Of a stretch of DNA of 64,000 nucleotides, positions 12,581-46,193 are shown one piece after another. Origin of the DNA: Actinomycetota bacterium (GTDB lineage: Bacteria > Actinomycetota > Thermoleophilia > Solirubrobacterales > 70-9). The translations under genes were made by a program, and so were the position numbers. The DNA is taken from the NCBI GenBank assembly GCA_018268415.1, contig JAFDWO010000136.1:494-64493 (forward strand), written 5' to 3'. Below the pieces are notes generated by a model. It saw only the letters and a list, made by a program, of their open reading frames with translations, was not told the DNA's origin and did no database searches. The number at the start of each line of letters is the position of its first letter. Within the stretch, counting starts at the first letter, position 1.

Positions 12581-12590
12581 GATCCCTCCA

Positions 12591-24951: not shown

Positions 24952-24967
24952 ATGACGAGGCTATTCT

Positions 24968-24979
24968 GCATACGTATGC
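24968..24979. promoter_or_regulatory. LacI-type palindromic operator candidate GCATACGTATGC (site 1)
   Basis: Perfect 12-bp palindrome with a central CG, about 50 bp upstream of the PrpD-like operon. The same motif occurs at 47312..47327 and 51032..51043. Confidence 0.45.
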
Positions 24980-25028
24980 TGGTCGATGCGGCGCCGTCCG
25001 CCACGACCACGTCAGGAGGAGGGATCAC

Positions 25029-27883: not shown

Positions 27884-28460
27884 CCGCACCAAGCCACCGG
27901 GCGAGGCGACCCTCGCCCAGACTCCCGAGGCGGCCTACGGCCTCGAGTTCGGCAAGACCTACGTGGCCCCCGAGGATGAGCGGCCGGCAGTGTCGCTGAA
28001 CCCCGACCAGGGTCGCGTCCTGGCCGCCTGGGCCGACCGCCTGATCCCCGCCGGGGATGGTTGGCCGGGGGCCGCGGAGGTCGGCGCGGTCACCTACGCC
28101 GACAACGTCGCCTCGCGCTCGCCGCTCCTGCGGGCGATGCTCCTGCGGGCGGTGGACCTGGTCGAGCGCGAGGCGCTCGGGCGGCACGGGGAGGGCTTCG
28201 CCGGCTGTACCGACGAGCAACGCGCCGCGCTCCTGGGCGAGCTCGAGGGGGACGAGGACGACGGCCCCCTCTTCGACCTGATCCTGGAGCTGATCTTCGA
28301 GGGCTACTACCGCGCCGCGCCGGTGCTCGAGATGGTCGAGAAGAGGACCGGCTTCCGGGTGATGGCGCCGGTCGAGGGAGTCGAGATCGAGCCCTTCGAC
28401 GAGAGCCTGCTGGGGCGGGTCAAGCAGCTGCCCCGACGGTGGCGGGAGGTGGCCGCATGA
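27873..28460 (+). CDS. gluconate 2-dehydrogenase subunit 3-like small subunit
   Basis: 195 aa starting MAFDRTKPPG. ADRLIPAGDGWPGA region. Overlaps both neighbouring genes. Confidence 0.55.
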   Translation: MAFDRTKPPGEATLAQTPEAAYGLEFGKTYVAPEDERPAVSLNPDQGRVLAAWADRLIPAGDGWPGAAEVGAVTYADNVASRSPLLRAMLLRAVDLVEREALGRHGEGFAGCTDEQRAALLGELEGDEDDGPLFDLILELIFEGYYRAAPVLEMVEKRTGFRVMAPVEGVEIEPFDESLLGRVKQLPRRWREVAA

Positions 28461-30043
28461 ACGCGACCGAGCCCGACGTGCTGGTGATCGGGGCGGGCGC
28501 CGCCGGCGCCGCGCTGACCTGGCGACTCGCCTCGAAAGGCGCCTCTGTCGTCTGCCTCGAGGAGGGCGACTGGGTCGACCGCGACACGATCCCGAAGGGT
28601 CACGTCGACTGGGAGGTGCGTGGCCGCCACTACTGGAACCCCGCCCCGTCGATCCGTGATCGCGAAGTCGATTACGCGGTGACCAACGGGGGCGAGAACC
28701 CCGTCGACCCGTTCATGTACTCGGCCGTCGGCGGGAGCACGATCGGCTTCGGCGCCCAGTACTGGCGCCTCCAACCATCAGACTTTCGCGCCCGCACGCT
28801 GGATGACTTCGGCGTCGACTGGCCGATCGCCTACGAGGACCTCGCCCCCTACTACGACATCAACGAGCGCGAGACCGGCGTCTCCGGCCTGGCCGGAGAC
28901 CCGACCGGACCGCAGCGCCCGGCCCCGCCGCTGCCGCCCAACGCGATGGGCTCGGTGGGCCGTCGCTGGGCGGCGGGCTTCGAGAAGCTCGGCTGGTACT
29001 GGTGGCCGCAGGACAGCGCGATCATCAGCCGCGACTATCGCGGCCGCGCCGCCTGCACGAACCGCAGCCAGTGCGCCTTCGGCTGTCCGCAGAAGGCGCT
29101 CTCGACCGCCGACGTCACCTACTGGCCGGTCGCCCTCGAGCTGGGGGCGGAGCTACGCGTCCGGGCGCGGGTCCGGCGCGTCATCCTCGACACCGCGGGT
29201 CGGGCCGTCGGGGTCGAGTACTACGACGCCGACGGTCGGCTGCAGGAGCAGCGGGCGAAGCGGGTGGTGATCTGCGCCGGGGGCATCGGCACGCCGCGGC
29301 TGCTGCTGATGTCGGCGAGCGCGACCCATCCGGACGGCCTCGCCAACTCGAGCGGGCAGGTCGGGCGCAACTTCATGGTCCACTGCCAGACCCTCGTCGC
29401 CGGGCGTTTCGAGGAGCCGACCGAGTCCTACGCCGGGACGGTCGGCTCGATGTCCTCGCGGCAGTTCTACGAGACCGATCCCGATAACGACTTCGTCCGC
29501 GGCTTCATCGTCGCCGGCAACCGCGGCTACTCGCCGCTGTTGACCGCGCTGCAGTTCCGGCTCTGGGGCGGCGAGCATCACGAGAAGCTCGAGCACCACC
29601 TCAACCACGACGCCACCGTGTACGTCTGCGGCGACGACGAGCCCGAGGAACACAACCGGGTCGAGCTCGACCACGGCCGGCTCGACGACTTCGGCCTGCC
29701 CGGCGTGACGACCAGCTACACGATGTCGGAGAACAGCCGGCGGATGACCGAGGCGGCGATCGGCCGCGCGACCGAGCTGTGCATGGCCGCCGGGGCCGAC
29801 TCGGTGCGTGACTTCGGCGTCGCGCCCGGCTTCGGCTGGCACCTGCTCGGCACCGCGCGGATGGGCGCCGATGCGGGCGCCTCGGTGGTCGACGCGGACC
29901 ACCGGGCGCACGACGTGCCGGGCCTCTACATCGCCGACGGCAGCTCGATGCCGACCGGCGGCGCGGTCAATCCGGCGCACACCATCCAGGCGCTTGCCCT
30001 GCGTGCCGCCGACCGGATCTGGGAGGGCCGCAACGATGGCTGA
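28457..30043 (+). CDS. GMC-family FAD oxidoreductase
   Basis: ATG 28457 (ATGA overlap). DVLVIGAGAAGAAL FAD motif. C-terminal HDVPGLYIADGSSMPTGGAVNPAHTI. 528 aa. Confidence 0.85.
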   Translation: MNATEPDVLVIGAGAAGAALTWRLASKGASVVCLEEGDWVDRDTIPKGHVDWEVRGRHYWNPAPSIRDREVDYAVTNGGENPVDPFMYSAVGGSTIGFGAQYWRLQPSDFRARTLDDFGVDWPIAYEDLAPYYDINERETGVSGLAGDPTGPQRPAPPLPPNAMGSVGRRWAAGFEKLGWYWWPQDSAIISRDYRGRAACTNRSQCAFGCPQKALSTADVTYWPVALELGAELRVRARVRRVILDTAGRAVGVEYYDADGRLQEQRAKRVVICAGGIGTPRLLLMSASATHPDGLANSSGQVGRNFMVHCQTLVAGRFEEPTESYAGTVGSMSSRQFYETDPDNDFVRGFIVAGNRGYSPLLTALQFRLWGGEHHEKLEHHLNHDATVYVCGDDEPEEHNRVELDHGRLDDFGLPGVTTSYTMSENSRRMTEAAIGRATELCMAAGADSVRDFGVAPGFGWHLLGTARMGADAGASVVDADHRAHDVPGLYIADGSSMPTGGAVNPAHTIQALALRAADRIWEGRNDG

Positions 30044-31145
30044 GGCGACGCAGATCGAGTTCCCCGCGGTCGAGGAGGTGCGGCTGCGCCGCCTGGCGAT
30101 GCCGCTGGAGGAGCCGATCCGGAGTGGCATCCACGCGATCGACTCGATCCACCTGTTCACCGCCGAGGTGAGCGCCGGCGGCTCTACCGGCCTCGGCTAT
30201 GCGTTCTCGTTCCGGCCCAACGAGATCGCCGCGGTGGCGGCCCTGGGCGCCGACCTGGCGAAGGTCGTGATGGAAGGGCGGCGGGGCGTGCGCGCTCACT
30301 GGCAGGCGATGTGGGACCACCTCAACTTCATCGGCCACGAGGGGGCGGGCGTGATGGCGATGGCGGCGATCGACACGGCGCTCTGGGACCTGCTCGCCCG
30401 CGAGGCGGGCCTGCCGCTCTACCGGCTGCTCGGCGCGGCCGAGCCGGGCGTCGACGTCTACGGCGCGGGCGGCTGGATCTCCTGGCCGGTCGAGCGGGTG
30501 GTCGAGGAGGCCCGCAGCTTCGCCGCCGCCGGCTACCGCGCCTACAAGATGCGGGTCGGCTCGCGCGACTGGCGCGGCGACGCCGAGCGGGTGCGCACGG
30601 TGCGCGAGGCGCTCGACCCCGGCTTCGGCCTGATGGTCGACGTCAACCAGGCCTGGAGCGTCGACGTCGCGATGCGGTTCGGACAGGCACTCGAGGAGGT
30701 CGGGCTGATCTGGATCGAGGAGCCGACCGATGCCCAGGACCACGCCGGTCAGGCCCGCCTGGCGCGCCGCCTGCACACCCCCATCGCGGCGGGGGAGACG
30801 CTCTGGGGACGGCGGGGCTTCACCGAGCTGCTCGCCGCCGGTGGGGTCGACGTGGTCCAGCTCGACCTGATGCGGTGTGGCGGGATCACCCCGTTCATGG
30901 CGATCGTGCCGCTGGTCGAAGCGACGCGCGCGCCGGTCACCTCGCATCTCTTCACCCCGATCAGCGCCCACCTCCTGGCGGCCTGCGCGCGGCCCTACAT
31001 GGCCGAGCACCTGCCGAGCTGGTTCGACCCGTTCTTCGCCCAGCCGCCGCGGATCGTCGACGGCACCCTGCTGCCGACCGAGGAGCCGGGGATCGGCCTC
31101 GAGCTGGCCGCAAGCGCGCGCGAGCGCTGGGAGGTGCGCTCGTGA
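30036..31145 (+). CDS. enolase-superfamily enzyme (mandelate racemase/muconate lactonizing, acid-sugar dehydratase-like)
   Basis: 369 aa. YKMRVG, MVDVNQAW, IEEP and DLMRCGG metal/base motifs. 8-nt overlap with the GMC gene. Confidence 0.8.
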   Translation: MAEATQIEFPAVEEVRLRRLAMPLEEPIRSGIHAIDSIHLFTAEVSAGGSTGLGYAFSFRPNEIAAVAALGADLAKVVMEGRRGVRAHWQAMWDHLNFIGHEGAGVMAMAAIDTALWDLLAREAGLPLYRLLGAAEPGVDVYGAGGWISWPVERVVEEARSFAAAGYRAYKMRVGSRDWRGDAERVRTVREALDPGFGLMVDVNQAWSVDVAMRFGQALEEVGLIWIEEPTDAQDHAGQARLARRLHTPIAAGETLWGRRGFTELLAAGGVDVVQLDLMRCGGITPFMAIVPLVEATRAPVTSHLFTPISAHLLAACARPYMAEHLPSWFDPFFAQPPRIVDGTLLPTEEPGIGLELAASARERWEVRS

Positions 31146-32041
31146 ACGCCACCGAGCTGCTGCGCGGGGCGGTCGATCTGCACATCCACCCGAGCCCCTC
31201 GCCCTATCCACGGCGGGTCGATGCGATCGGTGCGGCGGAGGCGGCGGCGCGCCACGGGATGCGGGCGATCGTCCTCAAGTCCCACCACAGCGACACGGCG
31301 ATGCTGATCGACGCGTTCGCCGACCGTGGTCTCGCCGAGATCCCGGTGACGGTAAAGGGCGGCGTCGTCCTCAACAGCCAGGTCGGCGGCATCAACCCGC
31401 ACGCCGTGGCGCTCTCGCTGGCGATGGGCGGGCGCATCGTCTGGCTGCCGACGATCTCGGCCCCGCCGCACATCGCCTCGACCGGGCACGCCTTCCCGAC
31501 CGCGACCGTCGACCTGCCCGAGGAGCCGCCGGTCGACGTCTGGGCCGACGCGGAGGGCGGCGAGCTGAAGCCGGAGCTGCACGAGATCCTGGCGATGCTC
31601 GCCAAGGCCGACGCGATCCTCGCGTCCGGCCACGTCGGCGCGGCCTCGATCGTCGCCACCTTCGAAGCCGCCCACGCCGCGGGCGTCAGGCGCCTCCTGG
31701 TCAACCACCCGAACTTCATCGTCGACGTCGGGTCGGCCGAGGCGAGGCGACTGGTCGAGCTCGGCGCCTACATCGAGCACGAGGCATCGATGTACGACGA
31801 GCGCTCGAAGTTCCACGCCTACGGCATCGAGACGCTGGAAGGGTGGATCGAGCTGGCGGGCCCCGAGCACACCGTGCTCGCGTCCGATCTTGGCCAGGCG
31901 AACAACCCCCTGCCACCGGAATCGCTCGCGCTGATCGCCGAGCGGTTGTCGGCCAACGGCACCGCGGCCGAGGACCTCCGGGCGCTGCTCGCCCGCAACC
32001 CGGCGCGGCTGCTCGGACTTGACGAGGACGCCGCGGCGTGA
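31142..32041 (+). CDS. putative metal-dependent hydrolase of unknown function (amidohydrolase/PHP-like, DUF6282-like)
   Basis: GTG 31142 overlaps the upstream stop (GTGA). DLHIHPSPS, LKSHH, ASGH and VNHPN His-rich motifs. 299 aa. Confidence 0.55.
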   Translation: MNATELLRGAVDLHIHPSPSPYPRRVDAIGAAEAAARHGMRAIVLKSHHSDTAMLIDAFADRGLAEIPVTVKGGVVLNSQVGGINPHAVALSLAMGGRIVWLPTISAPPHIASTGHAFPTATVDLPEEPPVDVWADAEGGELKPELHEILAMLAKADAILASGHVGAASIVATFEAAHAAGVRRLLVNHPNFIVDVGSAEARRLVELGAYIEHEASMYDERSKFHAYGIETLEGWIELAGPEHTVLASDLGQANNPLPPESLALIAERLSANGTAAEDLRALLARNPARLLGLDEDAAA

Positions 32042-32069: not shown

Positions 32070-32086
32070 GTTCCACTATATGGAAC
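32070..32086. promoter_or_regulatory. palindrome GTTCCA-CTATA-TGGAAC, candidate operator upstream of the second IclR gene
   Basis: Perfect 6-bp arms in the only AT-rich patch, 33 bp upstream of the ATG at 32119. Confidence 0.3.
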
Positions 32087-32118
32087 TCCACAGCTGGACC
32101 GCTTGCACCACCGGGAAG

Positions 32119-32937
32119 ATGGAAGAGAACGGCAGTCAGATTCAGGTGATCGACCGCGCGGTCGCGTTGATGCGGGCGCTTTCCGATGCCGACGGCCCGG
32201 TGGGCCTGCGTGATCTCGCCCGTCGCGTCGGACTGTCGCCCAGCACCACCCGCCGGATCCTCGCCTCGCTCGCCCACCACGGGCTCTGCGAGCAGACGCC
32301 GGAGGGGTCCTACCGACTCGGGCTGGTCCTCTTCGAGCTCGGCAGCAAGGTCGAAGCCAACCTCGACGTCCGCACGCGCAGCCTGCCCGCCCTGCAGCGA
32401 CTGTCCGAGCAGTCGCACCTGACGGCGTTCGTCTGCATCCAGCGCGACGACCGGGCGATCGCGATCGAGCGGGTCGACGGACGCTATGCGTTCTCGCTGG
32501 CGCTGACCGTGGGCGGCTCGCTGCCGCTGCACGCCGGCGGCGCCTCGCGGGCGCTGCTCGCCTTCCTGCCCGAGGAGGAGATCCGGCGCCTGCTCGGCTC
32601 GAGCCCGCGCGAGGCCTTCACCGGACGCACCATCACCGACCCCGAGGAGATCGTCGCCGACCTGCGCGAGGTGCGCGAGCGCGGCTACGCGATCTCCGAC
32701 GAGGACGTCACGCCTGGCGTCGCCGCGCTCGGCATGCCGGTTTTCGGCCACCTCTACGCCGATCGCCCGGTCGCCTCGGTCTCGATCGCCGGCCTCGTGC
32801 CGCAGGTGCTGGGGGACGATCGCGAGCGGCTGCTCGGCCTGCTCCGCGAGGCCGCCGAGGAGATCTCCCGCGAACTTGGCCATGGCCTCACCGAGGGCCA
32901 GGAACCCGGCAAACCGAGCGAAGGAGCGGCCGCATGA
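32119..32937 (+). CDS. IclR-family transcriptional regulator
   Basis: Met at 32119 (MEENGSQIQVIDRAVALMRAL) within ORF 32038..32937. HTH LRDLARRVGLSPSTTRRILASL. Confidence 0.8.
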   Translation: MEENGSQIQVIDRAVALMRALSDADGPVGLRDLARRVGLSPSTTRRILASLAHHGLCEQTPEGSYRLGLVLFELGSKVEANLDVRTRSLPALQRLSEQSHLTAFVCIQRDDRAIAIERVDGRYAFSLALTVGGSLPLHAGGASRALLAFLPEEEIRRLLGSSPREAFTGRTITDPEEIVADLREVRERGYAISDEDVTPGVAALGMPVFGHLYADRPVASVSIAGLVPQVLGDDRERLLGLLREAAEEISRELGHGLTEGQEPGKPSEGAAA

Positions 32938-33314
32938 GCGAGCAGAACGAGTTGGTGATCGACATCGGTGAGGGCCGTGACTTCTACGGGCTCGGCGCCC
33001 GCGTGCACCGGCTGGTCCACCCGAAGACCACCGGCTCCGACCAGGTCGGGGTCTCGGTCGCCATGCACGGTCCCGGCGAGATCGTCAAACGCCACCGCCA
33101 TCCCTACGAGGAGGCCTACTACGTGATCAAAGGGGAGGGCGTGATGTACATGGAGGGCCGCGAGGAGATCGAGCTCCATCCCGGCCGCGCCGTCTACATC
33201 CCGCCGGAAACCATCCATGGGCAGCGCAACACGTCGGACGTCGACGACCTCTGGATTCTCTGCTCGCTGTCGCCACCGCCCCCCGAGGGCGAGACCCCGG
33301 AGCTGTTCGAATGA
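32934..33314 (+). CDS. cupin-domain protein
   Basis: 126 aa. HRHPYEEAYYVIKGEG and YIPPETIHG motifs. ATGA overlap with IclR. Confidence 0.7.
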   Translation: MSEQNELVIDIGEGRDFYGLGARVHRLVHPKTTGSDQVGVSVAMHGPGEIVKRHRHPYEEAYYVIKGEGVMYMEGREEIELHPGRAVYIPPETIHGQRNTSDVDDLWILCSLSPPPPEGETPELFE

Positions 33315-34177
33315 GCCCCGCCGCCACCAACGCGGTCGACCGCGAGACGATCGAGCGGCTCGAAGAGCGCGCCCTCTTCATCCGCAAGGAAACGATCCGG
33401 CTGATCTCGATCGCCAAGGTCGGCCACTACGCCTCGGCCTTCTCCTGCGCGGAGATCCTCTCGACCCTGTTCTACGGGGTGATGGACCTGAAGCAGGGGG
33501 AGCCCGACTGGCCCGACCGTGATCGCTTCATGTTCGGCAAGGGCCATGCCGCCGTCGCCCTCTACCCGATCCTCGCCGACCACGGCTTCCTCGACCGCGA
33601 GGTGCTCGACGAGTACACCAAGCTCGGCAACCCGCTCGGCGATCACCCGGACCGCACCCGGGTCCCTGGGGTCGACTTCTCCAGCGGCTCGATCGGCCAT
33701 GCCCTCTCGGCGGGCCTCGGGATGGTCCTCGCGGGCCGGCTCGACGGTCGCGACTTCAACTCGTTCGTGCTGTTGGGCGACGGCGAGCAGAACGAGGGCC
33801 AGGTCTGGGAAGCGGCGATGTCGGCAGCCCACCACCGGGCCGGCCGGGTGATCGTGATCATCGATCGCAACCGGTACTGCCTCGACGGCGAGGTCGACGA
33901 GGTGATGGGGATCGAGCCGCTCGACGAGAAGTGGCGGGCCTTCGGCTGGGACGTCCACGAGGTCGACGGTCACGATGTCTCGGCGCTCTGCCCGCTCCTG
34001 CGCTCGCTCGCCGACCGCGAGGCGCCCGAGCAGCCGGCGGTGGTCATCGCCCACACGGTCAAGGGCAAGGGCGTCCCCTTCATGGAGAGCGAAATCGGCT
34101 GGCACCTCGGCTACCTCAGCCCCGAGGACGAGGCGAAGGCCCTGGAGTACATCGAGTCCGCGGCGCAAAGGAGCTGA
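33311..34177 (+). CDS. transketolase, N-terminal (TPP-binding) subunit
   Basis: 288 aa. GHYASAFSCAEIL, GSIGHALSAGLG and GDGEQNEGQVWEA motifs. Confidence 0.85.
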   Translation: MSPAATNAVDRETIERLEERALFIRKETIRLISIAKVGHYASAFSCAEILSTLFYGVMDLKQGEPDWPDRDRFMFGKGHAAVALYPILADHGFLDREVLDEYTKLGNPLGDHPDRTRVPGVDFSSGSIGHALSAGLGMVLAGRLDGRDFNSFVLLGDGEQNEGQVWEAAMSAAHHRAGRVIVIIDRNRYCLDGEVDEVMGIEPLDEKWRAFGWDVHEVDGHDVSALCPLLRSLADREAPEQPAVVIAHTVKGKGVPFMESEIGWHLGYLSPEDEAKALEYIESAAQRS

Positions 34178-34179
34178 CG

Positions 34180-35184
34180 ATGGCGGCACAGCAGACGATC
34201 CAACGAACCACCGCCGAGAGCTGGACCCTGCTCGACCTGCTCGACCAGGCACCCGGGCTGCACGCGCTCGCCGATGCCCTGATCGAGATCACCGAAGAGG
34301 GTGCGCCGGTGGTGGCGCTGACCGGCGACCTGAAGTACTCCAACGGCCTCGTGCGGTACGCCGAGCGCTTCCCCGAGCGCTTCTTCAACATGGGGATCTC
34401 CGAGCAGAACATGGTCAGCGTCGCGGCCGGTATGGCGACCACCGGCCTCACCCCGTTCGTGGCCGATTTCGCCTCCTTCCTGCCGCTGCTCTGCTGCGAG
34501 CAGATCCGCACCGACGTCGCCTACTCGCAACTGCCGGTGCGCCTGATCGGCCACCACGCCGGGATCACGCTGGGCTTCTACGGGACCTCCCACCACGCCA
34601 CCGAGGATCTCTCGATCACCCGCGCGATCGCCAACCTGACCGTCGTCGCCCCGACCGACGCGGCGATGCTCGCGGCGTCGATCCGCGCCTCGGTCGGCTG
34701 GGAGCAGCCGATCTATTACCGGATCGGCCGTGGTCGCGAGCCCGACGTCTACACGCCCGCGGAACTGCGCGACTTCGAGTTCGGTCGCGCGATCTGGCAC
34801 CACTGGGGCGGCGACGCCGTCGTGATCGCGACCGGCTCGATGGTGGCGCCCGCCGCCGAAGCGGTCGAGCGCCTGCGCGGCGAGGGCCACGAGGTCGGCC
34901 TGCTCGACATGCACACGATCAAGCCGATCGACCGGCAGGCGATCCTGATGGCATCCGCGGGCGGGGCGCCGCTGATCACCGTCGAGGAGCACAACACCGT
35001 CGGCGGGCTCGGCGCGGCGGTCTCCGAAGTGCTGGCCGACAAGGGCTCGCGCTCGCGCCTGCGACGTCACGGGATCCCCGACGTCTACAGCCTGATCGGC
35101 CCGCCCACCCACCTGTACCGACACTACGGCCTCGAGGGCGCCGGGATCGAGGCGGTCATCCGCGAGGAGCTGGAGCGGGGCTGA
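34180..35184 (+). CDS. transketolase, C-terminal (pyrimidine-binding) subunit
   Basis: ATG 34180 within ORF 33931..35184. FFNMGISEQNMVSVAAGMA motif. 334 aa. Confidence 0.85.
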   Translation: MAAQQTIQRTTAESWTLLDLLDQAPGLHALADALIEITEEGAPVVALTGDLKYSNGLVRYAERFPERFFNMGISEQNMVSVAAGMATTGLTPFVADFASFLPLLCCEQIRTDVAYSQLPVRLIGHHAGITLGFYGTSHHATEDLSITRAIANLTVVAPTDAAMLAASIRASVGWEQPIYYRIGRGREPDVYTPAELRDFEFGRAIWHHWGGDAVVIATGSMVAPAAEAVERLRGEGHEVGLLDMHTIKPIDRQAILMASAGGAPLITVEEHNTVGGLGAAVSEVLADKGSRSRLRRHGIPDVYSLIGPPTHLYRHYGLEGAGIEAVIREELERG

Positions 35185-36038
35185 TGCGCCCGAAGTTGAC
35201 GTCGGTCGAGGAGGCGATCGGCCTCTGCTCGTCCGGGGACGCCATCGCGCTCGGCGGGGCGACGATGCGCCGCAAGCCGATGGGCCTGGTCCGCGCCCTC
35301 GCCGGCGCCGACGTCGGTGACCTGGAGCTGTGGACCTGGATCGGCAGCGCCGACGTCGACCTGCTGATCGGGGCGGGCAAGGTGCGTGCGGTCAACTCGG
35401 CCTACGTCGGCTTCGGCGCCTTCGGCCTCGCCCAGACCAGCCGTCGCGCCTTCGCCGACGGCAGCGTCGACTTCCGCGATTGGAGCGAGAGCTCACTGGC
35501 CGAAGCCCTGCGGGCGGGGTCCGCCGGCCTTCCCGTCGCCCTCACCAAGGCGCTGCTCGGTACCTCGCTGGCGGCGGGGCTGGCGACCGAGGTCGACCTG
35601 CCGTTCACCGAGGAGCGCCTGATGGCGGTCCCGGCGGCGCGCCCCGACGTCGCGCTGATCCACGCCCAGAGCGCCGACGAGCTCGGCAACATCCGCCGCC
35701 GCCGCCCCAACCGCACCGACGACATCGATCACCTGATCGCGACCTCGGCGCGCCGTCTGATCGTCAGCGTCGAGGAGATCGTGCCCCGCGCGGAGGTGCT
35801 CGACGACCGCGACGCGACGATCATCCCGGGCACCTACGTCGACGCCGTGGTCCACCTTCCGGGCGGCGCCCACCCGACCGGCTGTGATGGCTACTACGAC
35901 CCCGACCTGGCCCACCTCGCCGCCTACGCCGAGGCGAGTCGCAGCGCCGCCGGCATCGCCGACTACATCGCCACCTACGTCGACGGCGTCGATCCGGCGC
36001 GCTACCGCGAGTTGACCGCCGGGGAGGTCACGGCGTGA
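35184..36038 (+). CDS. family I CoA-transferase, subunit A-like
   Basis: ATG 35184 overlaps the upstream TGA by 1 nt. 284 aa. Glutaconate/3-oxoacid CoA-transferase A-like N-terminus (SVEEAIGLCSSGDAIALGG). Confidence 0.7.
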   Translation: MRPKLTSVEEAIGLCSSGDAIALGGATMRRKPMGLVRALAGADVGDLELWTWIGSADVDLLIGAGKVRAVNSAYVGFGAFGLAQTSRRAFADGSVDFRDWSESSLAEALRAGSAGLPVALTKALLGTSLAAGLATEVDLPFTEERLMAVPAARPDVALIHAQSADELGNIRRRRPNRTDDIDHLIATSARRLIVSVEEIVPRAEVLDDRDATIIPGTYVDAVVHLPGGAHPTGCDGYYDPDLAHLAAYAEASRSAAGIADYIATYVDGVDPARYRELTAGEVTA

Positions 36039-36817
36039 CCGCCGCCTTCGACACCGACCAGATGATGAGCGTGGCGCTCTCGCGCCTCCTCCACGACGGC
36101 GAGATCGGCTTCATCGGGGTCGGCTCGAGCGGCCGCGCCCACACCCTGGTCACCGGGCTGCCGATGATGGCCGGCCACCTGGCGCGCGGTCGCGGCGTCG
36201 ACTTCGACCTTCAGATCGGCCCTCTGATCGCGCCCGATCTCGAGCAGCCGCCGGGCAGCTGGTTCGACAACGAGATCTACGGCTGGCGCGCCCCGGCGCT
36301 GATCGGCTCCGACGTGAACATGGACGGCTTCAAGCGCGGCGCCGTCTCGGTCGGCTTCATCTCGGGCGCCCAGATCGACCGCCACGGCAACGTCAACGTC
36401 AACCGCGTGCGCGCCGCCGACGGCGGCTGGAAGCGCCTCGGTGGGGCGCTGGCCCTGCCCGAGCACTGCGCCTTCGCGGGCCGGGTGCTGCTGCTCTGTG
36501 ATCTCGCCGAGCGCACCCTGGTCGAGGAAGTCGACTTCGTCACCGGTTTCGGCCATCGTCACCGCGGCGTCACCCGCGCCGAGCTCGGCCTGCCCGGCGG
36601 CGGCCCGGCGGCGCTGGTCAGCGACCTTGCCGTCTTCGACTTCGCGGGCGGCGAGATGCGGCTGACGGGCCTCTACCCGGGCGTGAGCGCCGACCAGGTC
36701 GAGGACCGGATGGGCTTCGTCCCGGCCCGCGCTCCGGACCTCGCCGAGCTCGAGCCGCCGACCGCGGCGGAGCTCGAGCGCCTCGCCGGGCTGAACCTTC
36801 CCGAGCTTCCGTACTAG
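36035..36817 (+). CDS. family I CoA-transferase, subunit B-like
   Basis: 260 aa; 4-nt overlap with subunit A. GSDVNMDGF and GAQIDRHGNVN region. Confidence 0.65.
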   Translation: MTAAFDTDQMMSVALSRLLHDGEIGFIGVGSSGRAHTLVTGLPMMAGHLARGRGVDFDLQIGPLIAPDLEQPPGSWFDNEIYGWRAPALIGSDVNMDGFKRGAVSVGFISGAQIDRHGNVNVNRVRAADGGWKRLGGALALPEHCAFAGRVLLLCDLAERTLVEEVDFVTGFGHRHRGVTRAELGLPGGGPAALVSDLAVFDFAGGEMRLTGLYPGVSADQVEDRMGFVPARAPDLAELEPPTAAELERLAGLNLPELPY

Positions 36818-36837
36818 AGACCAAGGAGCGAGCGCAG

Positions 36838-38220
36838 ATGACGACCAGCACCACGGCACGGATCTGGAAACCGGAGATCGAGACGATGTCTCGCGAGGAG
36901 CTGCGCGAGTTGCAGGGCCGGCGGCTGCGCGAGCAGGTCGCCTACGTCCACGAGCGCTCCCCCTTCTACCGGCGCAAGTTCGCCGCGATCGGGCTCGAGC
37001 CAGGCGACGTGCAGGGCGTCGACGACCTCCGCAAGCTGCCGTTCATCAGCAAGGACGAGCTGCGCCGCTCGCAGGACGAGACGCCGCCGTTCGGCGACCA
37101 CGTCTGCGCGACCCGGGAGGAGATCGCCTGGCTGCCAAGCACCAGCGGTACCACCGGGACGCCGCTGTTGTTGCCGCGCACCGCGGCGGACATCGAGACC
37201 TGGACCGAGCTGAACGCGCGCGCCTTCACCGCGGTCGGGATCGGCCCCGACGACATCTACCAGAACATCCTCACCTACAACTGGATCTACGGCGGCATGG
37301 CCCTCCACCTGGGCGCCCAGCGCACCGGCGCGGTCGTCGTCAACGCGGGGATGGGCAACACCGAGAAGCAGATCTGGGCGCTCAAGTACATGGGCACCAC
37401 CGCCTTCCACGCCACCCCGAGCTACCTGATCCACCTCGGCAATCGCTTCGCCGAAGCGGGCGAGACCGACCAGCTGAAGGTGCGGTCGATCGTCGCCGGC
37501 GGCGAGGTCGGGATGGCCGGCGCCGAGGCGAAGGCGCGGCTGCGGCGGCTGTTCCCGCGGGTCGAGACGCTGGCCGACGTCGGCGGCGTCACCGACGTCG
37601 GCACGATGATCTGGGCCGAGTGCCGGGAGATGTGCGGCGGCCACCTCGCCGAGGACTCGGTGATCTGCGAGATCCTCGACACCGAGACCGGCGAGCCGGT
37701 CGCCCCGGGCGAGGTCGGCGAGCTGGTCTTCACCGACGTCGTGACCAAGGGCGCGCCGCTCCTGCGCTACAAGGTCAACGACCTGACCCGCGTCGACGAG
37801 GCGCACTGTGACTGCGGCCGGACCCTGGCGCGCATCCCCGACGGCATCCTCGGCCGCGCCGACGACATGATCACGGTGCGGGCCGCCAACGTCTACCCGT
37901 CGGCGATCGACGAGATCGTCAAGAGCTTCGCCGAGATTCGCGGCGAGTACCAGGTGATCATCGACAAGCCCGGTGACCTCGACGTGATGACGCTGCGGCT
38001 GGAGCGCGCCGGCGACCTCTCCGCCGAGGCCGAACGCGACCTGCTGCGGCGGATCGACGATCGGGTGAAAATGAACTTCGGGTCGCGCGCCGAGATCGAG
38101 CTGCTCGACCCGGGGACCCTGCCGACCTTCGTCTACAAGGCGAAGCGGATCATCGACAAGCGCAAGGGCGAGAGCGAGCAGGACGCGGTCGACAAAGCTG
38201 CGGAGCAGCAACGGGGCTGA
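36838..38220 (+). CDS. phenylacetate-CoA ligase (PaaK)/coenzyme F390 synthetase-family adenylate-forming enzyme
   Basis: 460 aa. SREELRELQGRRL N-terminus and TSGTTGTPLL P-loop-like motif. Confidence 0.8.
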   Translation: MTTSTTARIWKPEIETMSREELRELQGRRLREQVAYVHERSPFYRRKFAAIGLEPGDVQGVDDLRKLPFISKDELRRSQDETPPFGDHVCATREEIAWLPSTSGTTGTPLLLPRTAADIETWTELNARAFTAVGIGPDDIYQNILTYNWIYGGMALHLGAQRTGAVVVNAGMGNTEKQIWALKYMGTTAFHATPSYLIHLGNRFAEAGETDQLKVRSIVAGGEVGMAGAEAKARLRRLFPRVETLADVGGVTDVGTMIWAECREMCGGHLAEDSVICEILDTETGEPVAPGEVGELVFTDVVTKGAPLLRYKVNDLTRVDEAHCDCGRTLARIPDGILGRADDMITVRAANVYPSAIDEIVKSFAEIRGEYQVIIDKPGDLDVMTLRLERAGDLSAEAERDLLRRIDDRVKMNFGSRAEIELLDPGTLPTFVYKAKRIIDKRKGESEQDAVDKAAEQQRG

Positions 38221-38243
38221 GCGCCCACGAGGGAAGGAGAGGC

Positions 38244-39139
38244 ATGGCAGACAGGAGCGATCGCCAGGTCCGCGGGACGCTGGCGGGGGTCACCGAGGAG
38301 TCGGTAGCGGCGGCCCTGGCGCGGGTCGGGCAGGGCAGGGTCTACAGCCTGCAGTCGCACTGGTGGCGGGGCATGCCCGGGCACCCGGTGCACCCGCAGT
38401 TCGACGTCATCACCTACCGCTCACCGCACGGCGAGCGGGTGCAGAAGGACCAGGAGTACCTGAACCCGCCCCAGAACACGATCGGTTACGGGTTCGTCTC
38501 GGAGATGATCATGGGGACGGCACACACCGGCACCCACATCGACGCGCTCTGCCACGTCACCTGTGGCGAGGACCACGCCTGGCACGGCGGCTTCTCCTCG
38601 GACGAGTACCTGGGGGACTTCGGGGCGCTCAACTCCGACGCCTCCGAGCTGGCGCCGATCATCGCCCGCGGGATCATGCTCGATGTCCCCAGGGCCCTCG
38701 GGATCGATCACTGCGAGGCCGGCTACGCGATCACCGGTGCCGACCTGCAGGCCGCCGTCGACGGGCAGGGGATCGGGGTGCAGCCGGGTGACGTGATCCT
38801 GGTCCGCACCGGGCAGATGCAGTTCTGGCCCGACATGGAGGCCAACGCGGTCGCCGCCGACAGCGGCGTCGGGATGGACGGCTCGCATTGGTTGGCCGAC
38901 CACGAGCCACTCGCCGTCGGTGCCGACAACGTCGCCTTCGAGTGCGCCCCCTCGGGTGTCGAGGGCAGCTCGCAGCCGGTCCACGTCCACCTGATCTACG
39001 AGCTCGGCATCCCGATCCTCGAGTGGGTCGACTGCGAGAAGCTGGCCGCCGACGGGGTCTACGAGTTCACCTTCATCTGCCTGCCGCTCGGGGTGATGGG
39101 GGCGACCGGCTCGATGGTGAACCCGATCGCGATCGTCTG

Positions 39140-39140
<1 letters not shown>
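38244..39140 (+). CDS. cyclase-family protein (second paralogue)
   Basis: 298 aa. GTAHTGTHIDALCH motif. Confidence 0.75.
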
Positions 39141-39883
<743 letters not shown>

Positions 39884-39884
39884 G

Positions 39885-40310
39885 GTGGCGGTCGAGGGGT
39901 TCCGCTTCAGCGTCCGCCAGGAGGTCTCGCCGCGTGATCTCGACGGCTTCGGCCACGTCAACAACGCCGTCTACCTCACCTACATGGAGAACGCCCGGGT
40001 CGCCTACCTGCGCGAGGTGCTCGGCGTCCGCCGGCTCGAGGACGTGCGCAACGTGATGGCGTCGGTGACGGTCGAGTTCAAGGCGCCGGCCTCCTTCGGC
40101 GACGTCCTCGAGGTGGCCGTGCGCTGCGAGCAGATCGGCGGCAAGAGCTTCGGCCTGCGTTACGCGATCGTCGGCGCGGACGGCACCACGGTCGCCACCG
40201 CGACGAGCGCCCAGGTGATGTTCGACTTCGCCACGCAGCAATCGATTCCGGTGCCGCCCGCCTGGCGCTGCTCGATCGAGACCTACGACCGTCAGGTCGA
40301 GGCGCAGTGA
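39885..40310 (+). CDS. 4HBT/YbgC-type acyl-CoA thioesterase (hotdog fold)
   Basis: 141 aa with a GTG start. DLDGFGHVNNAVYLTYME motif. Confidence 0.8.
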   Translation: MAVEGFRFSVRQEVSPRDLDGFGHVNNAVYLTYMENARVAYLREVLGVRRLEDVRNVMASVTVEFKAPASFGDVLEVAVRCEQIGGKSFGLRYAIVGADGTTVATATSAQVMFDFATQQSIPVPPAWRCSIETYDRQVEAQ

Positions 40311-42022
40311 TCGCGCGGCGCTATCAGGAGCCGGTGTCGGTGCCGGACGCGGTCATCGGCGTGCTCGCCGAAGCGGGGGTGGACGCGGTCTTCGGGATGC
40401 CCGGCGGCTACACCCTGAAGCTGTTCGACGCGCTGATCGACCACCCCGAGGTGCGCACCGTCCTCACCCGCGACGAGACCCTGGCCGGGGTGATGGCGGA
40501 GGTCTACGGGCGGCTGACCGGCAAGCCCGGCGTGGTGATCGGACAGGGCGCCTTCCTGGTCGCCAACGCGTTGCTCGGAGCGCTCGAGGCGCACCTCGGC
40601 AGCGCGCCGATGCTGCTGCTCGGCGATGCCACCGATTTTGCCCCGTTCACCCATCACGCGCCCTACCAGGCGGGGATGGCGCTGCCCGGCAACTGGGACG
40701 CGCGGGGAGCGCTCGGCGCGGTCACCAAGTGGGCGGCGGTGGTTCGCGATGGCGCCGAGGCGGTCCAGGTGACCCAGCAGGCGGTGCGGGCCGCGCTCAG
40801 CGACGACCCCGGACCGGTGGCGATGATCTACCACGGCGAGGCGCTCGACGACGAGGTCTCGGCCGCCTCGGTGCCGCGGGTGTACCCGACGTCGGCGTAC
40901 CTGCCGCCCGCCCCGCCGCCGGTCGACCCGGCGGCGCTCGCGGCCGCGGTGCGGGCGTTGGCCACGGCGGAGCGGCCGGTGATCGTGGCCGGCAACGGGG
41001 TGCGGTTGGCGCGCGCCCACGAGGAGCTCGCCGAGCTGGCGCGGGCGCTCGGGGCGCCGGTGGTGACGACGGCGGGCGGCAAGGGGGTGCTCGCGGAGGT
41101 CGACCCCTACGCGCTCGGCGTCTTCGGCAACTTCGGCAGGCCGGCGGCGAACGAGGCGGTCGGGGCCGCCGACGCGGTGCTCGCGATCGGCACCCGGCTC
41201 GCGCCGACCGACACGGCCAACGAGAGCCCCGAGCTGATCGATCCCGAGCGCCAGGTCATCGTCCAGGTCGACGTCTCCGCCACCAACCTCGGCCTCGCGT
41301 TCCCGGTCGACCATGCGCTCCTCGGCGACGCCGGCGAGGCGATGCGCCGGCTGGTCGTCGAGCTCGGCGCGGCCGGCGGCCGGCCGGCGTCCCCGCCCTG
41401 GGCGGCCGGCGGCGAGGAGGTGTGGTCGGCAGGCCCGGAGGCATTCTCCGACGAGGTGCCCGTCTTGCCGCAACGGGCGATCGCCGAGCTGCAGCGCGCC
41501 GCTCCCGCCGACGCCTTCCTCACCTGCGATGCGGGCGAGAACCGCCTCTTCATGCTCCACCACTTCCAGACCCGACAGGCGGGGACGTTTCTCCAGCCCG
41601 CCGCCAGCGGCGGTATGGGCTACGCGATCCCGGCGGCGCTGGCCGCCAAGGTCGTCCATCCCGGGCGGGCGGCGGTCGCGGTCTGTGGCGACGGCGGCTT
41701 CGCGATGACGATGAACGGCCTGATGACGGCGATCGAGATGGAGCTGCCGATCGTCGTCATGGTGCTGAACAACGGCGTCCTCGGCTGGGTCCTGCACGGT
41801 CAGCCGCGCCCGATCGCCTCGCGGTTCGCCCCCTTCGACCACGCGGCCATGGCGCGCTCGATGGGCTGCGGGGGCATCCGCGTGGAGCGGCCGGAGAACC
41901 TCGCCGACGCGCTCGGGCGGGCGTTTGCGGAAAGCGACCGGCCGACCGTGGTCGAGGTCCTCTCGAGCCCCGAGCAGACCTACCGCACGGTCGCCTCGCC
42001 GCTCGCCGAGACCGCGGAGTAG
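40307..42022 (+). CDS. thiamine-diphosphate-dependent enzyme, acetolactate-synthase-like family (second paralogue)
   Basis: 571 aa. GMPGGYTLKLFDA N-terminus and GDGGFAMT ... NNGVLG TPP motif. 4-nt overlap with the thioesterase. Confidence 0.85.
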   Translation: MIARRYQEPVSVPDAVIGVLAEAGVDAVFGMPGGYTLKLFDALIDHPEVRTVLTRDETLAGVMAEVYGRLTGKPGVVIGQGAFLVANALLGALEAHLGSAPMLLLGDATDFAPFTHHAPYQAGMALPGNWDARGALGAVTKWAAVVRDGAEAVQVTQQAVRAALSDDPGPVAMIYHGEALDDEVSAASVPRVYPTSAYLPPAPPPVDPAALAAAVRALATAERPVIVAGNGVRLARAHEELAELARALGAPVVTTAGGKGVLAEVDPYALGVFGNFGRPAANEAVGAADAVLAIGTRLAPTDTANESPELIDPERQVIVQVDVSATNLGLAFPVDHALLGDAGEAMRRLVVELGAAGGRPASPPWAAGGEEVWSAGPEAFSDEVPVLPQRAIAELQRAAPADAFLTCDAGENRLFMLHHFQTRQAGTFLQPAASGGMGYAIPAALAAKVVHPGRAAVAVCGDGGFAMTMNGLMTAIEMELPIVVMVLNNGVLGWVLHGQPRPIASRFAPFDHAAMARSMGCGGIRVERPENLADALGRAFAESDRPTVVEVLSSPEQTYRTVASPLAETAE

Positions 42023-42231: not shown

Positions 42232-43179
42232 GTGAGCGGAAGCACGGCGAAGGTGAACGGGGACGCGGCGCGGGCGGCGACCGGCGACGGGCCCGGCTGC
42301 ATCGCGCGGATCCAGAGCAGCTTCCAGGACTTCACCCCGGCCGAGCGGCGGATCGCCGAAACCGTCCTCGCCGACCCCGACGGGCTGGTCCTCGCCAGCG
42401 TCACCGACTTCGCCGGGCGCAGCGGCGGCAGCGAGGCGGCGGTCAGTCGCTTCGCCCGCAAGCTCGGGTACGGCAGCTTCGCCGAGTTCAAGCTCGCGCT
42501 CTCCCGCGACATCGCTCCGACCGGCCGGCCGGTCCACGGTGACGTCGAGCTGGGCGACGATACGGAGACCGTCGTGGCCAAGGTCGCGGCCGGCAACATC
42601 AGGGCGATCGACGATGCCGTGAGGCGCGTCGACCAGGCGGCGCTGGCCGAGGCCGCACGGCGCATTTCCGCTGCAAATCGCGTTGCTTTCTGCGGATTTG
42701 CCGGCTCGGCGATCGCCGCCCAGGACGCGATGAACCACTTCGTCCGGGCGATCCCCAACGCCTTCCACTTCGTCGATCCGCACGAGCAGACGATCTGGGC
42801 CTCCCTTTGTGGCTCGGGCGACGTGCTCGTCCTCTGCTCCCACTCCGGATCCTCGCGGGACCTGCTCGAGCTCGCGCAGCTGGCGGTCGACCGCGGCGCC
42901 TTCGTCATCGCGATCACGAACCAGGGCGGCAACGCCCTGGCCGAGATCGCGCAGCTGAACCTCCATACCTCCACCCGCGAGGGCCGCTTCCGCGAGGAGG
43001 CGCTCACCTCGCGGATCGCGACGCTGACGCTGATCGACATCCTCTACGTCCTCGTCGCCCTGCAGCGGCCCGAGGAGATGGCGGAGCGCGGCGAGGCGAT
43101 CCGCGACGCGATCGACTCCAAGCGCGTCTCCGGCCCGCGTACCGGCAGCCTCTCGGCGCCGGTTCGCGTTCGCCCCTAG
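42232..43179 (+). CDS. MurR/RpiR-family transcriptional regulator (HTH_6 + SIS domain)
   Basis: 315 aa with a GTG start. FTPAERRIAETVL HTH region and a SIS motif CSHSGSSRD. Confidence 0.8.
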   Translation: MSGSTAKVNGDAARAATGDGPGCIARIQSSFQDFTPAERRIAETVLADPDGLVLASVTDFAGRSGGSEAAVSRFARKLGYGSFAEFKLALSRDIAPTGRPVHGDVELGDDTETVVAKVAAGNIRAIDDAVRRVDQAALAEAARRISAANRVAFCGFAGSAIAAQDAMNHFVRAIPNAFHFVDPHEQTIWASLCGSGDVLVLCSHSGSSRDLLELAQLAVDRGAFVIAITNQGGNALAEIAQLNLHTSTREGRFREEALTSRIATLTLIDILYVLVALQRPEEMAERGEAIRDAIDSKRVSGPRTGSLSAPVRVRP

Positions 43180-43287
43180 TCGACTCCGCCGACGACCCGC
43201 GCAGTCCGGTCGCCAGGTGTGGGCAGGTTCCCGCGCGGCGTCTCGGTCTACCCCTGCTCTGTAGAAATTTTCGTCATTCATCTAGAT

Positions 43288-43316
43288 ATTGAAAATCTCT
43301 TGCAAATCGATTACGG
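43288..43316 (+). promoter_or_regulatory. candidate promoter of the ABC transporter operon: TTGAAA - 17 nt - TACGGT, overlapped by inverted repeat AGAAATTTTC (43262) / GAAAATCTCT (43290)
   Basis: AT-rich island in the 218-bp intergenic region. The inverted repeat matches 9 of 10 positions. Confidence 0.3.
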
Positions 43317-43397
43317 TTGCGAGGCAGGCCGAGGAGAGGGCAAGCGCGTGGCGTGTTGCGGCATCTCCCGGTCTTTCGAGATCAAAGGAGGAGATTG

Positions 43398-44630
43398 GTG
43401 AAAGTGCCAAGTAGGAACGGCGGCCCCGAGGCCACGAAACAGCGTTGGCTGTCGCTCGTCGTCGGTGTCTTCCTGATCGCCGCGCTCACGGTCGGGCTCA
43501 CGGCCTGCGGCGGTGGCGGCAGCACTACCTCGGGCGGCTCCAACGAAGAAGCCGCGGCGGGGGAAGAAGCCGGCGGCGCCGAAGAAGGTGGGGGCAGCTC
43601 CGAACTCGCCTCCTTCGAAAAAAAACTGGAAGAAGCGAAAGAAACGGAGCCGAACCACTGGGAAGGTCCGACCGTTCCGGTGACTCCGCCCAAACACTTC
43701 AAGGTGGCGGGCGTCAGCTGCTCCAGTCAGCTTGAAGGCTGCCTGACCCCGCTCCAGGGCGCCGAAGACGCGGCCAAGGAACTCGGCTGGGAATTCGAAA
43801 TCTACGACGGCGAAGGCGACCCGACGGTCCAGGCCAAACGGATCCAGCAGGCGATCCAGAAAGGCGCCAACGCGCTGATCCTCGCCGCGGTCGAAGGCAA
43901 CTCGGTGAAAAGCGAGCTGGAAGAAGCCGAAAAGGCCGGGATCATCGTCATCTCGACGACCAACGGCACCGCGCCCGGCGAACAGGGCTACAAGATCGAC
44001 ACCTCGCCGAACGTGACCGCGATCGGCAACGCGGTGGCCGACTGGATGATCGTCGACAGCGGCGGCAAGGCGGTCGTCACCCCGTTCGTCGACCGCGAGT
44101 TCCAGACCAACCTCGACTTCTCCGAAGGCATCGAAGAAGAGCTCAAGCAGTGCTCGGGTTGCAAGATCGAATCGCCGGTCAACTTCGTCGCGACCGACGT
44201 CGGCAGCAAGCTCGGCGCCAACACCACCGCGTACCTCCAGCAGCACCCCGAAGTCGGGTACTTCTACTCGACCTACGATCCGGCGATGGCCGAACAGGTC
44301 GCCGCCGTGCAGCAGGCCGGGATCGAAGTGAAGTCCTGCAGTCAGCTCGGTGACGCTCAGAACCTGAGCTTCATCAAAAACGGACAGGTGCAGGCCTGCG
44401 ACGGTGCCTGGGACAACGAGTATGAGGGCTACGCGACGATCGATCAGATCATCCGCCTGGCCACGCACAAACCGCTCTGGGTCAGCAAGAACGTTCCGCC
44501 GCGGTTCAAATACGGCGAGAACATCCCCTGGGTTCTGCTCGAAAAGAACAACCTGCCCGAAAGCGAAGAAACGTACCGGGCCCCGTTCGACTACATCAGC
44601 GAATACCAGAAGCTATGGGGTCTGAAGTAA
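43398..44630 (+). CDS. sugar ABC transporter substrate-binding lipoprotein
   Basis: GTG 43398 (or 43404) follows an AAAGGAGGAG RBS. Signal peptide with lipobox LTAC followed by a Gly/Ser/Glu linker. Periplasmic-binding-protein type I fold. Confidence 0.8.
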   Translation: MKVPSRNGGPEATKQRWLSLVVGVFLIAALTVGLTACGGGGSTTSGGSNEEAAAGEEAGGAEEGGGSSELASFEKKLEEAKETEPNHWEGPTVPVTPPKHFKVAGVSCSSQLEGCLTPLQGAEDAAKELGWEFEIYDGEGDPTVQAKRIQQAIQKGANALILAAVEGNSVKSELEEAEKAGIIVISTTNGTAPGEQGYKIDTSPNVTAIGNAVADWMIVDSGGKAVVTPFVDREFQTNLDFSEGIEEELKQCSGCKIESPVNFVATDVGSKLGANTTAYLQQHPEVGYFYSTYDPAMAEQVAAVQQAGIEVKSCSQLGDAQNLSFIKNGQVQACDGAWDNEYEGYATIDQIIRLATHKPLWVSKNVPPRFKYGENIPWVLLEKNNLPESEETYRAPFDYISEYQKLWGLK

Positions 44631-46162: not shown

Positions 46163-46193
46163 ATCTGCAAACGAGCAAAGGACTGGAGCACGA

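Follow-up and report, generated by a model that had tools for sequence, protein, structure and literature searches.

A widespread Glu-less relative of glutaconate CoA-transferase in a conserved actinobacterial operon, and its possible part in the CoA-dependent breakdown of carbohydrate-derived acids

Which pathway is encoded by a run of eleven tightly packed genes that brings together a split transketolase (TK), an apparent CoA-transferase, an acyl-CoA ligase, a thioesterase and a second thiamine diphosphate (ThDP) enzyme? The question is raised by a 64,000-nucleotide stretch of contig JAFDWO010000136.1 (positions 494 to 64,493, forward strand; GenBank assembly GCA_018268415.1) from an uncultured soil bacterium (Actinomycetota, Solirubrobacterales). 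We refer to this whole stretch as the window and give all window coordinates as positions within it. Positions 32119-42022 are filled by eleven plus-strand open reading frames, all of them with Pfam assignments:

32119..32937, plus strand: IclR-family regulator (HTH_IclR and IclR_C).
32934..33314, plus strand: small metal-binding monocupin of 126 aa with an HxH...E...H motif, putatively an isomerase or dioxygenase (Cupin_2, 1e-16).
33311..34177, plus strand: N-terminal (ThDP/PP) subunit of a split transketolase (Transketolase_N; GDG...N motif and donor-binding His residues).
34180..35184, plus strand: Pyr and C subunit of the split transketolase, from a divergent subfamily with GFYGTSHH (Transket_pyr and Transketolase_C).
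35184..36038, plus strand: alpha subunit of a heterodimer of the Gct/IpdAB/AibAB family (CoA_trans, A).
36035..36817, plus strand: beta subunit, Glu-less 'type ii', with the insertion GVGSSGRAHTLVTG and an invariant His144 (weak CoA_trans, B).
36838..38220, plus strand: PaaK-family adenylating acyl-CoA ligase (AMP-binding and AMP-binding_C_2).
38244..39140, plus strand: cyclase-family metal hydrolase (Cyclase, PF04199; HTGTHIDALCH motif).
39140..39883, plus strand: classical short-chain dehydrogenase/reductase (SDR), FabG-, glucose 1-dehydrogenase- or KduD-like (Pfam SDR).
39885..40310, plus strand: YbgC/FadM-type hotdog acyl-CoA thioesterase (4HBT_2).
40307..42022, plus strand: acetolactate synthase (ALS)-like ThDP enzyme, the variable last gene (TPP_enzyme_N/M/C).

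The answer begins with the heterodimer in the middle of the operon, which a preliminary description of this DNA had taken for a family I CoA-transferase. Its A subunit matches PF01144 with 92.5 bits and its B subunit with 23.1 bits, just at the 23-bit cut-off, and its nearest solved relatives, all of them significant, are GctAB (1poi), IpdAB (6co6, 6con) and AibAB (5mzw), the alpha subunit lying nearest to 1poi_A, 6con_A and 5mzw_A. In a profile alignment, the catalytic Glu54 of GctB ('IIVESG') faces 'DLQIGPLI' in the window beta subunit, which offers no acidic residue, and the GSGGA motif of GctB ('TGSGGAN') has become 'GGALALP', with the loss of GxGG. GxGG(A/F) is the oxyanion motif of family I CoA-transferases. 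When we grouped the beta subunits across 104 fetched loci, with AibB and IpdB added as references, 24 were canonical and Glu-bearing, 41 were Glu-less of 'type ii', five formed a second Glu-less type and three stayed unclassified, the last being one locus protein and the two references. The catalytic Glu is deleted and GxGG replaced in 41/41 aligned members of the type-ii subfamily. Since both elements are missing, the pair, as judged from these alignments, is not a family I CoA-transferase and belongs to a widespread Glu-less subfamily.

This subfamily has conserved features of its own. In a 24-sequence alignment of beta subunits reaching down to 35% identity, Gly28, Gly30, Gly33 and Arg34 of the 11-residue insertion GVGSSGRAHTLVTG are invariant, as is His144 in 'LGGALALPEH'. 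The site that in an AibAB-type decarboxylase is occupied by Cys56B (with Glu72B) is a Gly or a gap in the window beta subunit, which would place the pair outside the AibAB type; its mechanism may still be like that of AibAB. Five loci (L027, L038, L056, L066 and L068) encode a third kind of beta subunit, Glu-less and carrying 'LLAGWS' and 'VGPILQPEH', always beside a type-ii pair, an arrangement which suggests that two different non-transferase pairs cooperate.

The company kept by the Glu-less pair offers a view of what it might act on. Partner genes were counted in two sets of loci, 34 non-redundant ones with a Glu-less pair, each 8 kb or longer, and 8 with canonical pairs only. PaaK-like ligases, family III CoA-transferases and separate canonical pairs that bear the Glu were all scored as CoA-activating enzymes, and ThDP enzymes were counted in three architectures (split TK, E1 alpha/beta and ALS-like). 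A CoA-activating enzyme was present in 30/34 Glu-less loci as against 0/8 canonical-only loci (Fisher p = 4e-6), and a ThDP enzyme in 26/34 as against 1/8 (Fisher p = 0.0015). The first of these linkages favours a CoA thioester, supplied by the neighbouring enzyme, as the substrate of the Glu-less pair, and the second favours a ThDP-dependent step as part of the same chemistry.

The module is found in soil Actinomycetota and, among Alphaproteobacteria, on plasmids of Shinella, Azospirillum and Microvirga; human-gut anaerobes have it too, joined there to a putative 4-hydroxybutyrate-to-butyrate module. The clusters on Shinella sumterensis plasmid CP132317.1 (L101) and Azospirillum argentinense plasmid p5 (L102) combine a LacI regulator and a sugar ABC transporter with two A/B pairs, a family III CoA-transferase, an ALS-like enzyme (PRK06112 type) and the dihydroxyacetone kinase DhaK/DhaL; these cultured Alphaproteobacteria would be tractable hosts in which to study the function of the Glu-less pair. 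On the human-gut contig OFFS01000136.1 (L072, 1464-16464), a Glu-less A/B pair and a family III CoA-transferase occur together with E1 alpha/beta, a TRAP transporter and a DeoR regulator; further genes there encode an HpaB-family protein, an acetyl-CoA hydrolase/transferase, PfkB and an iron-dependent alcohol dehydrogenase. We read the HpaB-family protein as 4-hydroxybutyryl-CoA dehydratase-like, and the cluster resembles a route, so far uncharacterised, by which an imported carboxylate would be turned into butyrate.

The split transketolase is altered as well. Its C subunit reaches 219 bits to the split TK of Carboxydothermus hydrogenoformans (6yaj), and the sequence that reads GEDGASHQ there, and GEDGPSQM in the genome's own canonical TK (contig C34), reads GFYGTSHH in the operon TK, the change from GEDG to GFYG being kept in its orthologues. 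Similarly, ATRxAYGEAL appears to be replaced by GLHALADAL, with Leu for Arg, and this too is conserved in orthologues, the N-terminal stretch concerned lying outside the confident HMMER alignment. The Asp of GEDG (yeast Asp477, E. coli Asp469) binds the C2-hydroxyl of the acceptor, and the Arg (Arg359/358) binds the substrate phosphate. The other phosphate ligands (Ser385, His461 and Arg520 in E. coli numbering) are apparently kept, as Ser, His and a second Arg. Retained, too, are the ThDP/metal motif 'GDGEQNEG...DRN' in the N subunit, the activating Glu in 'GISEQNM' of the C subunit and the donor-side His residues. Another TK type, likewise lacking the Asp (G(L/K/S)(T/S)G), occurs in L023, L024, L038 and L039. 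The split TK had earlier been thought to point to sugar-phosphate chemistry, but with this altered pocket, and with no kinase gene in the operon, the enzyme is a divergent paralogue for which classical sugar-phosphate chemistry is unlikely.

The second ThDP enzyme is of a family that had been noted to include acyl-CoA-acting members, oxalyl-CoA decarboxylase (Oxc) and 2-hydroxyacyl-CoA lyase (HACL). We rejected an Oxc/HACL identity on similarity: among solved structures the enzyme matches BbmA and CsmA with about 200 bits and ALS with 160-190 bits, while HACS/Oxc reach only about 118-120 bits. Its 25 best NCBIfam matches include no Oxc model, and its likeness to BbmA, ALS and glyoxylate carboligase is the greater. 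Nor did it stand as the core of the pathway. Its gene follows the thioesterase gene in the window, L103 and L104, and is missing from L001, L002, L033 and L037, the RpiR gene being the next one there; a gene so variable at the operon end cannot be the core, and is a recurrent but dispensable end-of-operon gene, not a one-off. The preliminary description's wider idea of a CoA-dependent C-C cleavage survives these results, although its likely catalyst becomes the Glu-less A/B pair and not the ThDP enzyme.

The ligase has the family-level domains and scores 297.8 against 700 bits (NF041878) and 267.6 against 646 bits (TIGR02155) for the PaaK equivalogs, its nearest structures being PaaK (4r1l) and, nearly as close, 2-hydroxyisobutyryl-CoA ligase (6hdw). 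The cyclase-family protein matches PF04199 with 76.3 bits and has an intact HxGTHxDxxxH metal motif; the one structure close to it, 5ibz, is itself uncharacterised, and members of the family include C-N hydrolases as well as DPGC, a C-C hydrolase of the retro-Claisen type (PMC10470551). The thioesterase scores 66.6 against a TIGR00051 cut-off of 68.7. The possibility that the cupin is KdgF, which linearises uronates, was considered and dropped, there being no KdgF chain among its 46 PDB matches at E <= 0.01. None of the 11 operon proteins reaches an NCBIfam equivalog cut-off, and no characterised syntenic cluster was found among solved structures, NCBIfam, annotated plasmids or the full-text literature. 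With no equivalog match, no close solved relative of the A/B pair and no literature on the set, the pathway is as unrecognisable to us as it had been on first description.

That the genes belong together is much clearer. Neighbours overlap by 4 nt (ATGA/GTGA) at four junctions (IclR/cupin, cupin/TK-N, A/B and thioesterase/ThDP) and by 1 nt (TGATG) at two (TK-C/A subunit and cyclase/SDR), and the remaining four junctions are gaps of 2, 20, 23 and 1 nt, in full agreement with the preliminary description, whose title leaves out the cupin although it counts among the eleven genes. The start of the ThDP gene is ambiguous, as the public gene call gives a protein of 560 aa; we infer that this call starts at GTG 40340, which would replace the 4-nt overlap by a 29-nt gap. 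The gene order is shared by at least 10 metagenomic relatives with 47-94% protein identity, unchanged in L001, L002, L033, L037, L103, L104 and L035 and rearranged in L036, L026 and L023, and the eleven-gene arrangement is far beyond chance. Its invariant core consists of the cupin, the split TK, the A/B pair, the ligase, the cyclase-family enzyme and the thioesterase; L023 and L104 keep the operon but for the SDR. Homologues of the beta subunit in genomes of the same order are only 30-40% identical, and the seven same-genus genomes listed gave no match, so that no cultured orthologous cluster was found. A fusion of TK-C and GctA in L103 (3847-5664, 605 aa) was considered as Rosetta-stone evidence and discarded as a frameshift artefact, residues 230-334 being out of frame. 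In L026 the ligase gene is broken into three pieces (11261-12622). The L103 frameshift and the split L026 ligase are either assembly errors or signs of decaying copies.

Upstream of the first gene lies a candidate control site:

32070..32086: perfect 6-5-6 palindrome GTTCCACTATATGGAAC, candidate IclR-type operator, 33 bp upstream of the iclR ATG.

The palindrome GTTCCACTATATGGAAC presumably represents an IclR-type operator, which we take it to resemble. A single copy of its core, TTCCA-N5-TGGAA, is present in the window, where 0.02 would be expected, and the core is kept at the same position in L001, L002, L037 and L023, the last a cluster of 59% identity; with one or two mismatches it is found in L033, L035, L103 and L104. 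It is thus conserved in all IclR-bearing relatives, whereas the TetR-headed relative L026 lacks it. A conserved palindrome of this type at the head suggests that the operon has its own regulated promoter, and it looks as if this promoter is under a putative IclR operator. The earlier proposal of a single operon is borne out by the tight junctions, by synteny in about ten relatives and by this conserved IclR-type operator. The IclR protein itself has BhcR, PcaR and IclR as its best NCBIfam matches, all far under cut-off. A scan of 24500-44000 for sigma-70 promoters and intrinsic terminators returned none on the plus strand, a result that is uninformative for an actinobacterium of 70% G+C.

Two neighbouring gene sets bear on the substrate:

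24939..32041, plus strand, upstream: PrpD-like protein, AldA-like aldehyde dehydrogenase, two-subunit GMC dehydrogenase, talarate/galactarate-dehydratase-like enolase and DUF6282 protein.
42232..47231, plus strand, downstream, outside the operon: RpiR regulator and CUT2-type sugar ABC transporter (substrate-binding protein at 43317-44630, double ATPase, permease).

Relatives of the transporter (47-65% identity) are embedded between operon genes in L023 and L026, and one adjoins the operon, partly seen, in L036. The upstream AldA-like aldehyde dehydrogenase scores 477 against 500 bits. In L036, PrpD, HpcH aldolase and luciferase-like genes share one operon with the A/B-ligase-cyclase-thioesterase block, and in L026 the same three kinds of gene, together with GMC and MR_MLE genes, stand within the operon. 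Judged by these families, the whole island is oriented to carbohydrates and sugar acids. Between the ThDP stop codon and the RpiR gene lies an AT-richer spacer of 210 bp; it holds one TTGACA and two copies of CAACTTC(T/C)T at 42050-42110, a possible promoter/operator of the transporter operon.

Our preferred reading, which we hold tentatively and with slightly less than even confidence, is that the operon serves an IclR-controlled, CoA-dependent catabolism of an imported, non-phosphorylated, carbohydrate-derived carboxylic acid by way of its CoA thioester. The substrate would be taken up by the CUT2-type ABC transporter; the cyclase-family hydrolase, with the SDR where present and the upstream enzymes, would oxidise it and/or open a lactone or cyclic beta-dicarbonyl to give a free acid, and the PaaK-family ligase would turn that acid into an acyl-CoA. 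The Glu-less A/B heterodimer would then perform a C-C reaction on the thioester (decarboxylation, retro-Claisen or retro-aldol) without CoA transfer, a role suggested by its two Glu-less relatives, of which AibAB is a decarboxylase and IpdAB a ring hydrolase. The hotdog thioesterase might free the shortened acid, or act as a CoA safety valve like PaaI beside PaaK. The cupin and the divergent TK would process a non-phosphorylated alpha-hydroxyketone fragment and hand on a C2 unit, with the ALS-like ThDP enzyme providing an optional additional step. More specific versions are only weakly suggested, namely formation of glycolyl-CoA from an aldonyl-CoA by retro-aldol, cleavage by the TK of a 4-deoxy ketose such as 2,5-diketo-3-deoxygluconate, or a cyclitol or beta-diketone ring opening. 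It is doubtful, though conceivable, that the Glu-less heterodimer constitutes a new enzyme class, for example an aldonyl- or deoxyaldonyl-CoA retro-aldol lyase or a decarboxylase, performing a C-C reaction on sugar-acid CoA thioesters with a ThDP enzyme.

Several points weigh against this reading. Every step of the scheme is inferred and it names no substrate, and, should the thioesterase belong to the pathway proper, ATP would be wasted on a thioester that is afterwards hydrolysed. That the A/B pair binds a CoA thioester is deduced from its neighbours only, Glu and GxGG both being gone. The ligase, whose best matches are phenylacetate ligases, and the cupin, whose nearest structures are the dioxygenase-type quercetinase C-domain and TM1459, would also fit an aromatic substrate, and the matches of the substrate-binding protein to solved sugar-binding proteins are only weak. 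Finally, a TK with GFYGTSHH occurs in another actinobacterium (L113, G409:C6, 7208-15407), where its operon also encodes a class III aminotransferase and a zinc-dependent alcohol dehydrogenase. This operon adjoins AsnC, aldehyde dehydrogenase and amino-acid permease genes and includes no Gct pair, so that the TK and the A/B pair are not obligate partners; the setting suggests a role of that TK in amine or amino-alcohol metabolism.

Could the substrate instead be a ring? On a cyclitol or cyclic beta-dicarbonyl route, which we consider unlikely, an inositol-, quinate- or dihydrophloroglucinol-like carbocyclic polyol or acid would be handled by the SDR and the cyclase acting like phloroglucinol reductase and DPGC, redox being followed by retro-Claisen ring opening; alternatively, the A/B pair would open the ring of a CoA ester like IpdAB, one of its nearest solved relatives, with TK and cupin trimming the linear keto-acid. 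The cyclase family does hold DPGC, a C-C hydrolase whose gene neighbours an SDR (PMC10470551), and in the window the cyclase and SDR genes are translationally coupled, yet the SDR is missing from L023 and L104 with the operon otherwise kept. Distant clusters with the same A/B subfamily (L024, L028) carry IolE-like, IolB/KduI-like and ALS/IolD-like genes, and the Shinella cluster has a shikimate dehydrogenase gene, whereas the window operon contains no inositol dehydrogenase or dehydratase and no quinate enzyme. The few matches of the substrate-binding protein include 4irx, which we take to be a myo-inositol-binding protein, but this match is very weak (E 1.7e-6) and covers a partial stretch. 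An aryl acid as the substrate is improbable, in our estimate. Here the PaaK-like ligase would activate an arylacetate-type acid, the cupin would be a ring-cleaving dioxygenase, the cyclase an amidase or formamidase like isatin hydrolase or kynurenine formamidase, and the thioesterase a PaaI-like safety valve. The best family and structure matches of the ligase are indeed phenylacetate-CoA ligases, although it falls far under the PaaK equivalog cut-offs (298 vs 700 bits), and the nearest structures of the cupin are quercetin and gentisate dioxygenases, but no gene for an oxygenase reductase, ring hydroxylation or beta-oxidation goes with them. Isatin hydrolase belongs to the cyclase family, and BbmA and CsmA are the nearest structures of the ThDP enzyme; on the other side, the embedded transporter is of the CUT2 monosaccharide type, all neighbouring modules are sugar-acid-like, and the scheme has no obvious place for a transketolase.

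The A/B pair might also be what its Pfam family says, a working family I CoA-transferase that shuttles CoA within an ensemble of three CoA activities and an acyl-CoA-acting ThDP lyase, as the preliminary description had it. PF01144 matches both subunits and GctAB is their best solved match, but the deleted Glu and replaced GxGG of all 41 aligned members leave this very unlikely. In many related clusters, moreover, the Glu-less pair is accompanied by a family III transferase or by a second, canonical pair that retains the Glu, which suggests that the Glu-less pair does something else, and the ThDP enzyme of this scheme is by similarity not Oxc/HACL and is dispensable in four close relatives. 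Least probable of all is a biosynthetic cluster for a signalling compound or secondary metabolite, with the TK as donor of a C2 (glycolyl) unit, the ligase as the enzyme that activates a precursor and the cyclase in a role like that of DpsY. Split TK-like enzymes furnish glycolyl units in some natural-product pathways, and the cyclase family includes DpsY, a proposed polyketide cyclase. The operon, however, has no gene for a carrier protein, polyketide synthase or nonribosomal peptide synthetase, tailoring or export, an uptake ABC transporter is embedded in the operons of relatives, and the IclR, RpiR and LacI regulators and sugar-acid neighbours are typical of catabolism.

Returning to the catabolism of a carbohydrate-derived acid, its building blocks come from known superfamilies, and it is the Glu-less Gct-like subfamily and its ThDP partnership that are most likely to hide new enzymology. 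If this holds, many genes annotated as 'glutaconate CoA-transferase subunit A/B' carry the wrong name, and the subfamily, which recurs in many metagenomes, would mark a widespread non-phosphorylative route in which carbohydrate acids are processed as CoA esters instead of phosphate esters, with relevance to soil carbon turnover; the gut cluster with its 4-hydroxybutyryl-CoA dehydratase-like genes may then bear on butyrate formation. The natural GFYG subfamily of transketolases is of interest for biocatalysis, and engineered changes at the Asp of GEDG open TK to non-hydroxylated aldehydes.

How does the operon compare with systems already described? For the heterodimer, the best-scoring solved relative is GctAB of Acidaminococcus fermentans (1poi), with a full-length beta alignment at 137 bits, but GctB holds Glu54 ('IIVESG') and GSGGA, and the window beta subunit has neither. 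IpdAB is reportedly a non-transferase of the Gct fold that cleaves a ring C-C bond of a CoA thioester hydrolytically. This steroid ring-cleaving hydrolase of Mycobacterium and Rhodococcus (6co6, 6con) is, like the window pair, a Gct-fold A/B heterodimer and gives a significant match; it differs in that the beta subunits align well in their C-terminal half only, in that IpdB lacks the insertion and the His motif, and in its steroid context. AibAB, in which another residue stands in place of the catalytic Glu of Gct, is an acyl-CoA decarboxylase (PMC7756340). AibA/AibB, the 3-methylglutaconyl-CoA decarboxylase of Myxococcus xanthus (PDB 5mzw-5n03), thus shares with the A/B pair a two-subunit Gct fold and the replaced beta Glu, and matches both window subunits significantly. 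AibB, however, has Cys at the Glu position and no 11-residue GxGxxGR insertion or 'P(E/D)H' motif, and its context is isovaleryl-CoA biosynthesis, without a sugar transporter, TK or ligase.

Likenesses to the rest of the operon are more partial. SqwGH of the sulfo-TK pathway and AptAB, which acts on apulose-4-phosphate, are also two-gene transketolases in dedicated sugar operons, a likeness drawn from descriptions of these systems. The genes for both adjoin an isomerase gene, and the distal group of the ketose substrate is non-standard. Their donors are sulfonated or phosphorylated and involve no CoA chemistry, whereas the window TK has Tyr for the GEDG Asp and apparently Leu for the ATR Arg. 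The phenylacetate catabolon, with PaaK and PaaI, shares a ligase of the same family and a hotdog thioesterase in one CoA-dependent operon, but the PaaABCDE oxygenase, PaaG, PaaZ and PaaJ are all missing from the window operon. In Klebsiella michiganensis, the deoxyribonyl-CoA route (Price et al. 2019) relies on a thiolase together with a hydroxyacyl-CoA dehydrogenase, with no Gct-like pair, TK, cupin or cyclase-family enzyme, yet there, too, a sugar acid is converted to a CoA thioester and cleaved as such (PMC6365646), which provides a precedent for sugar-acid CoA thioesters of the kind proposed here.

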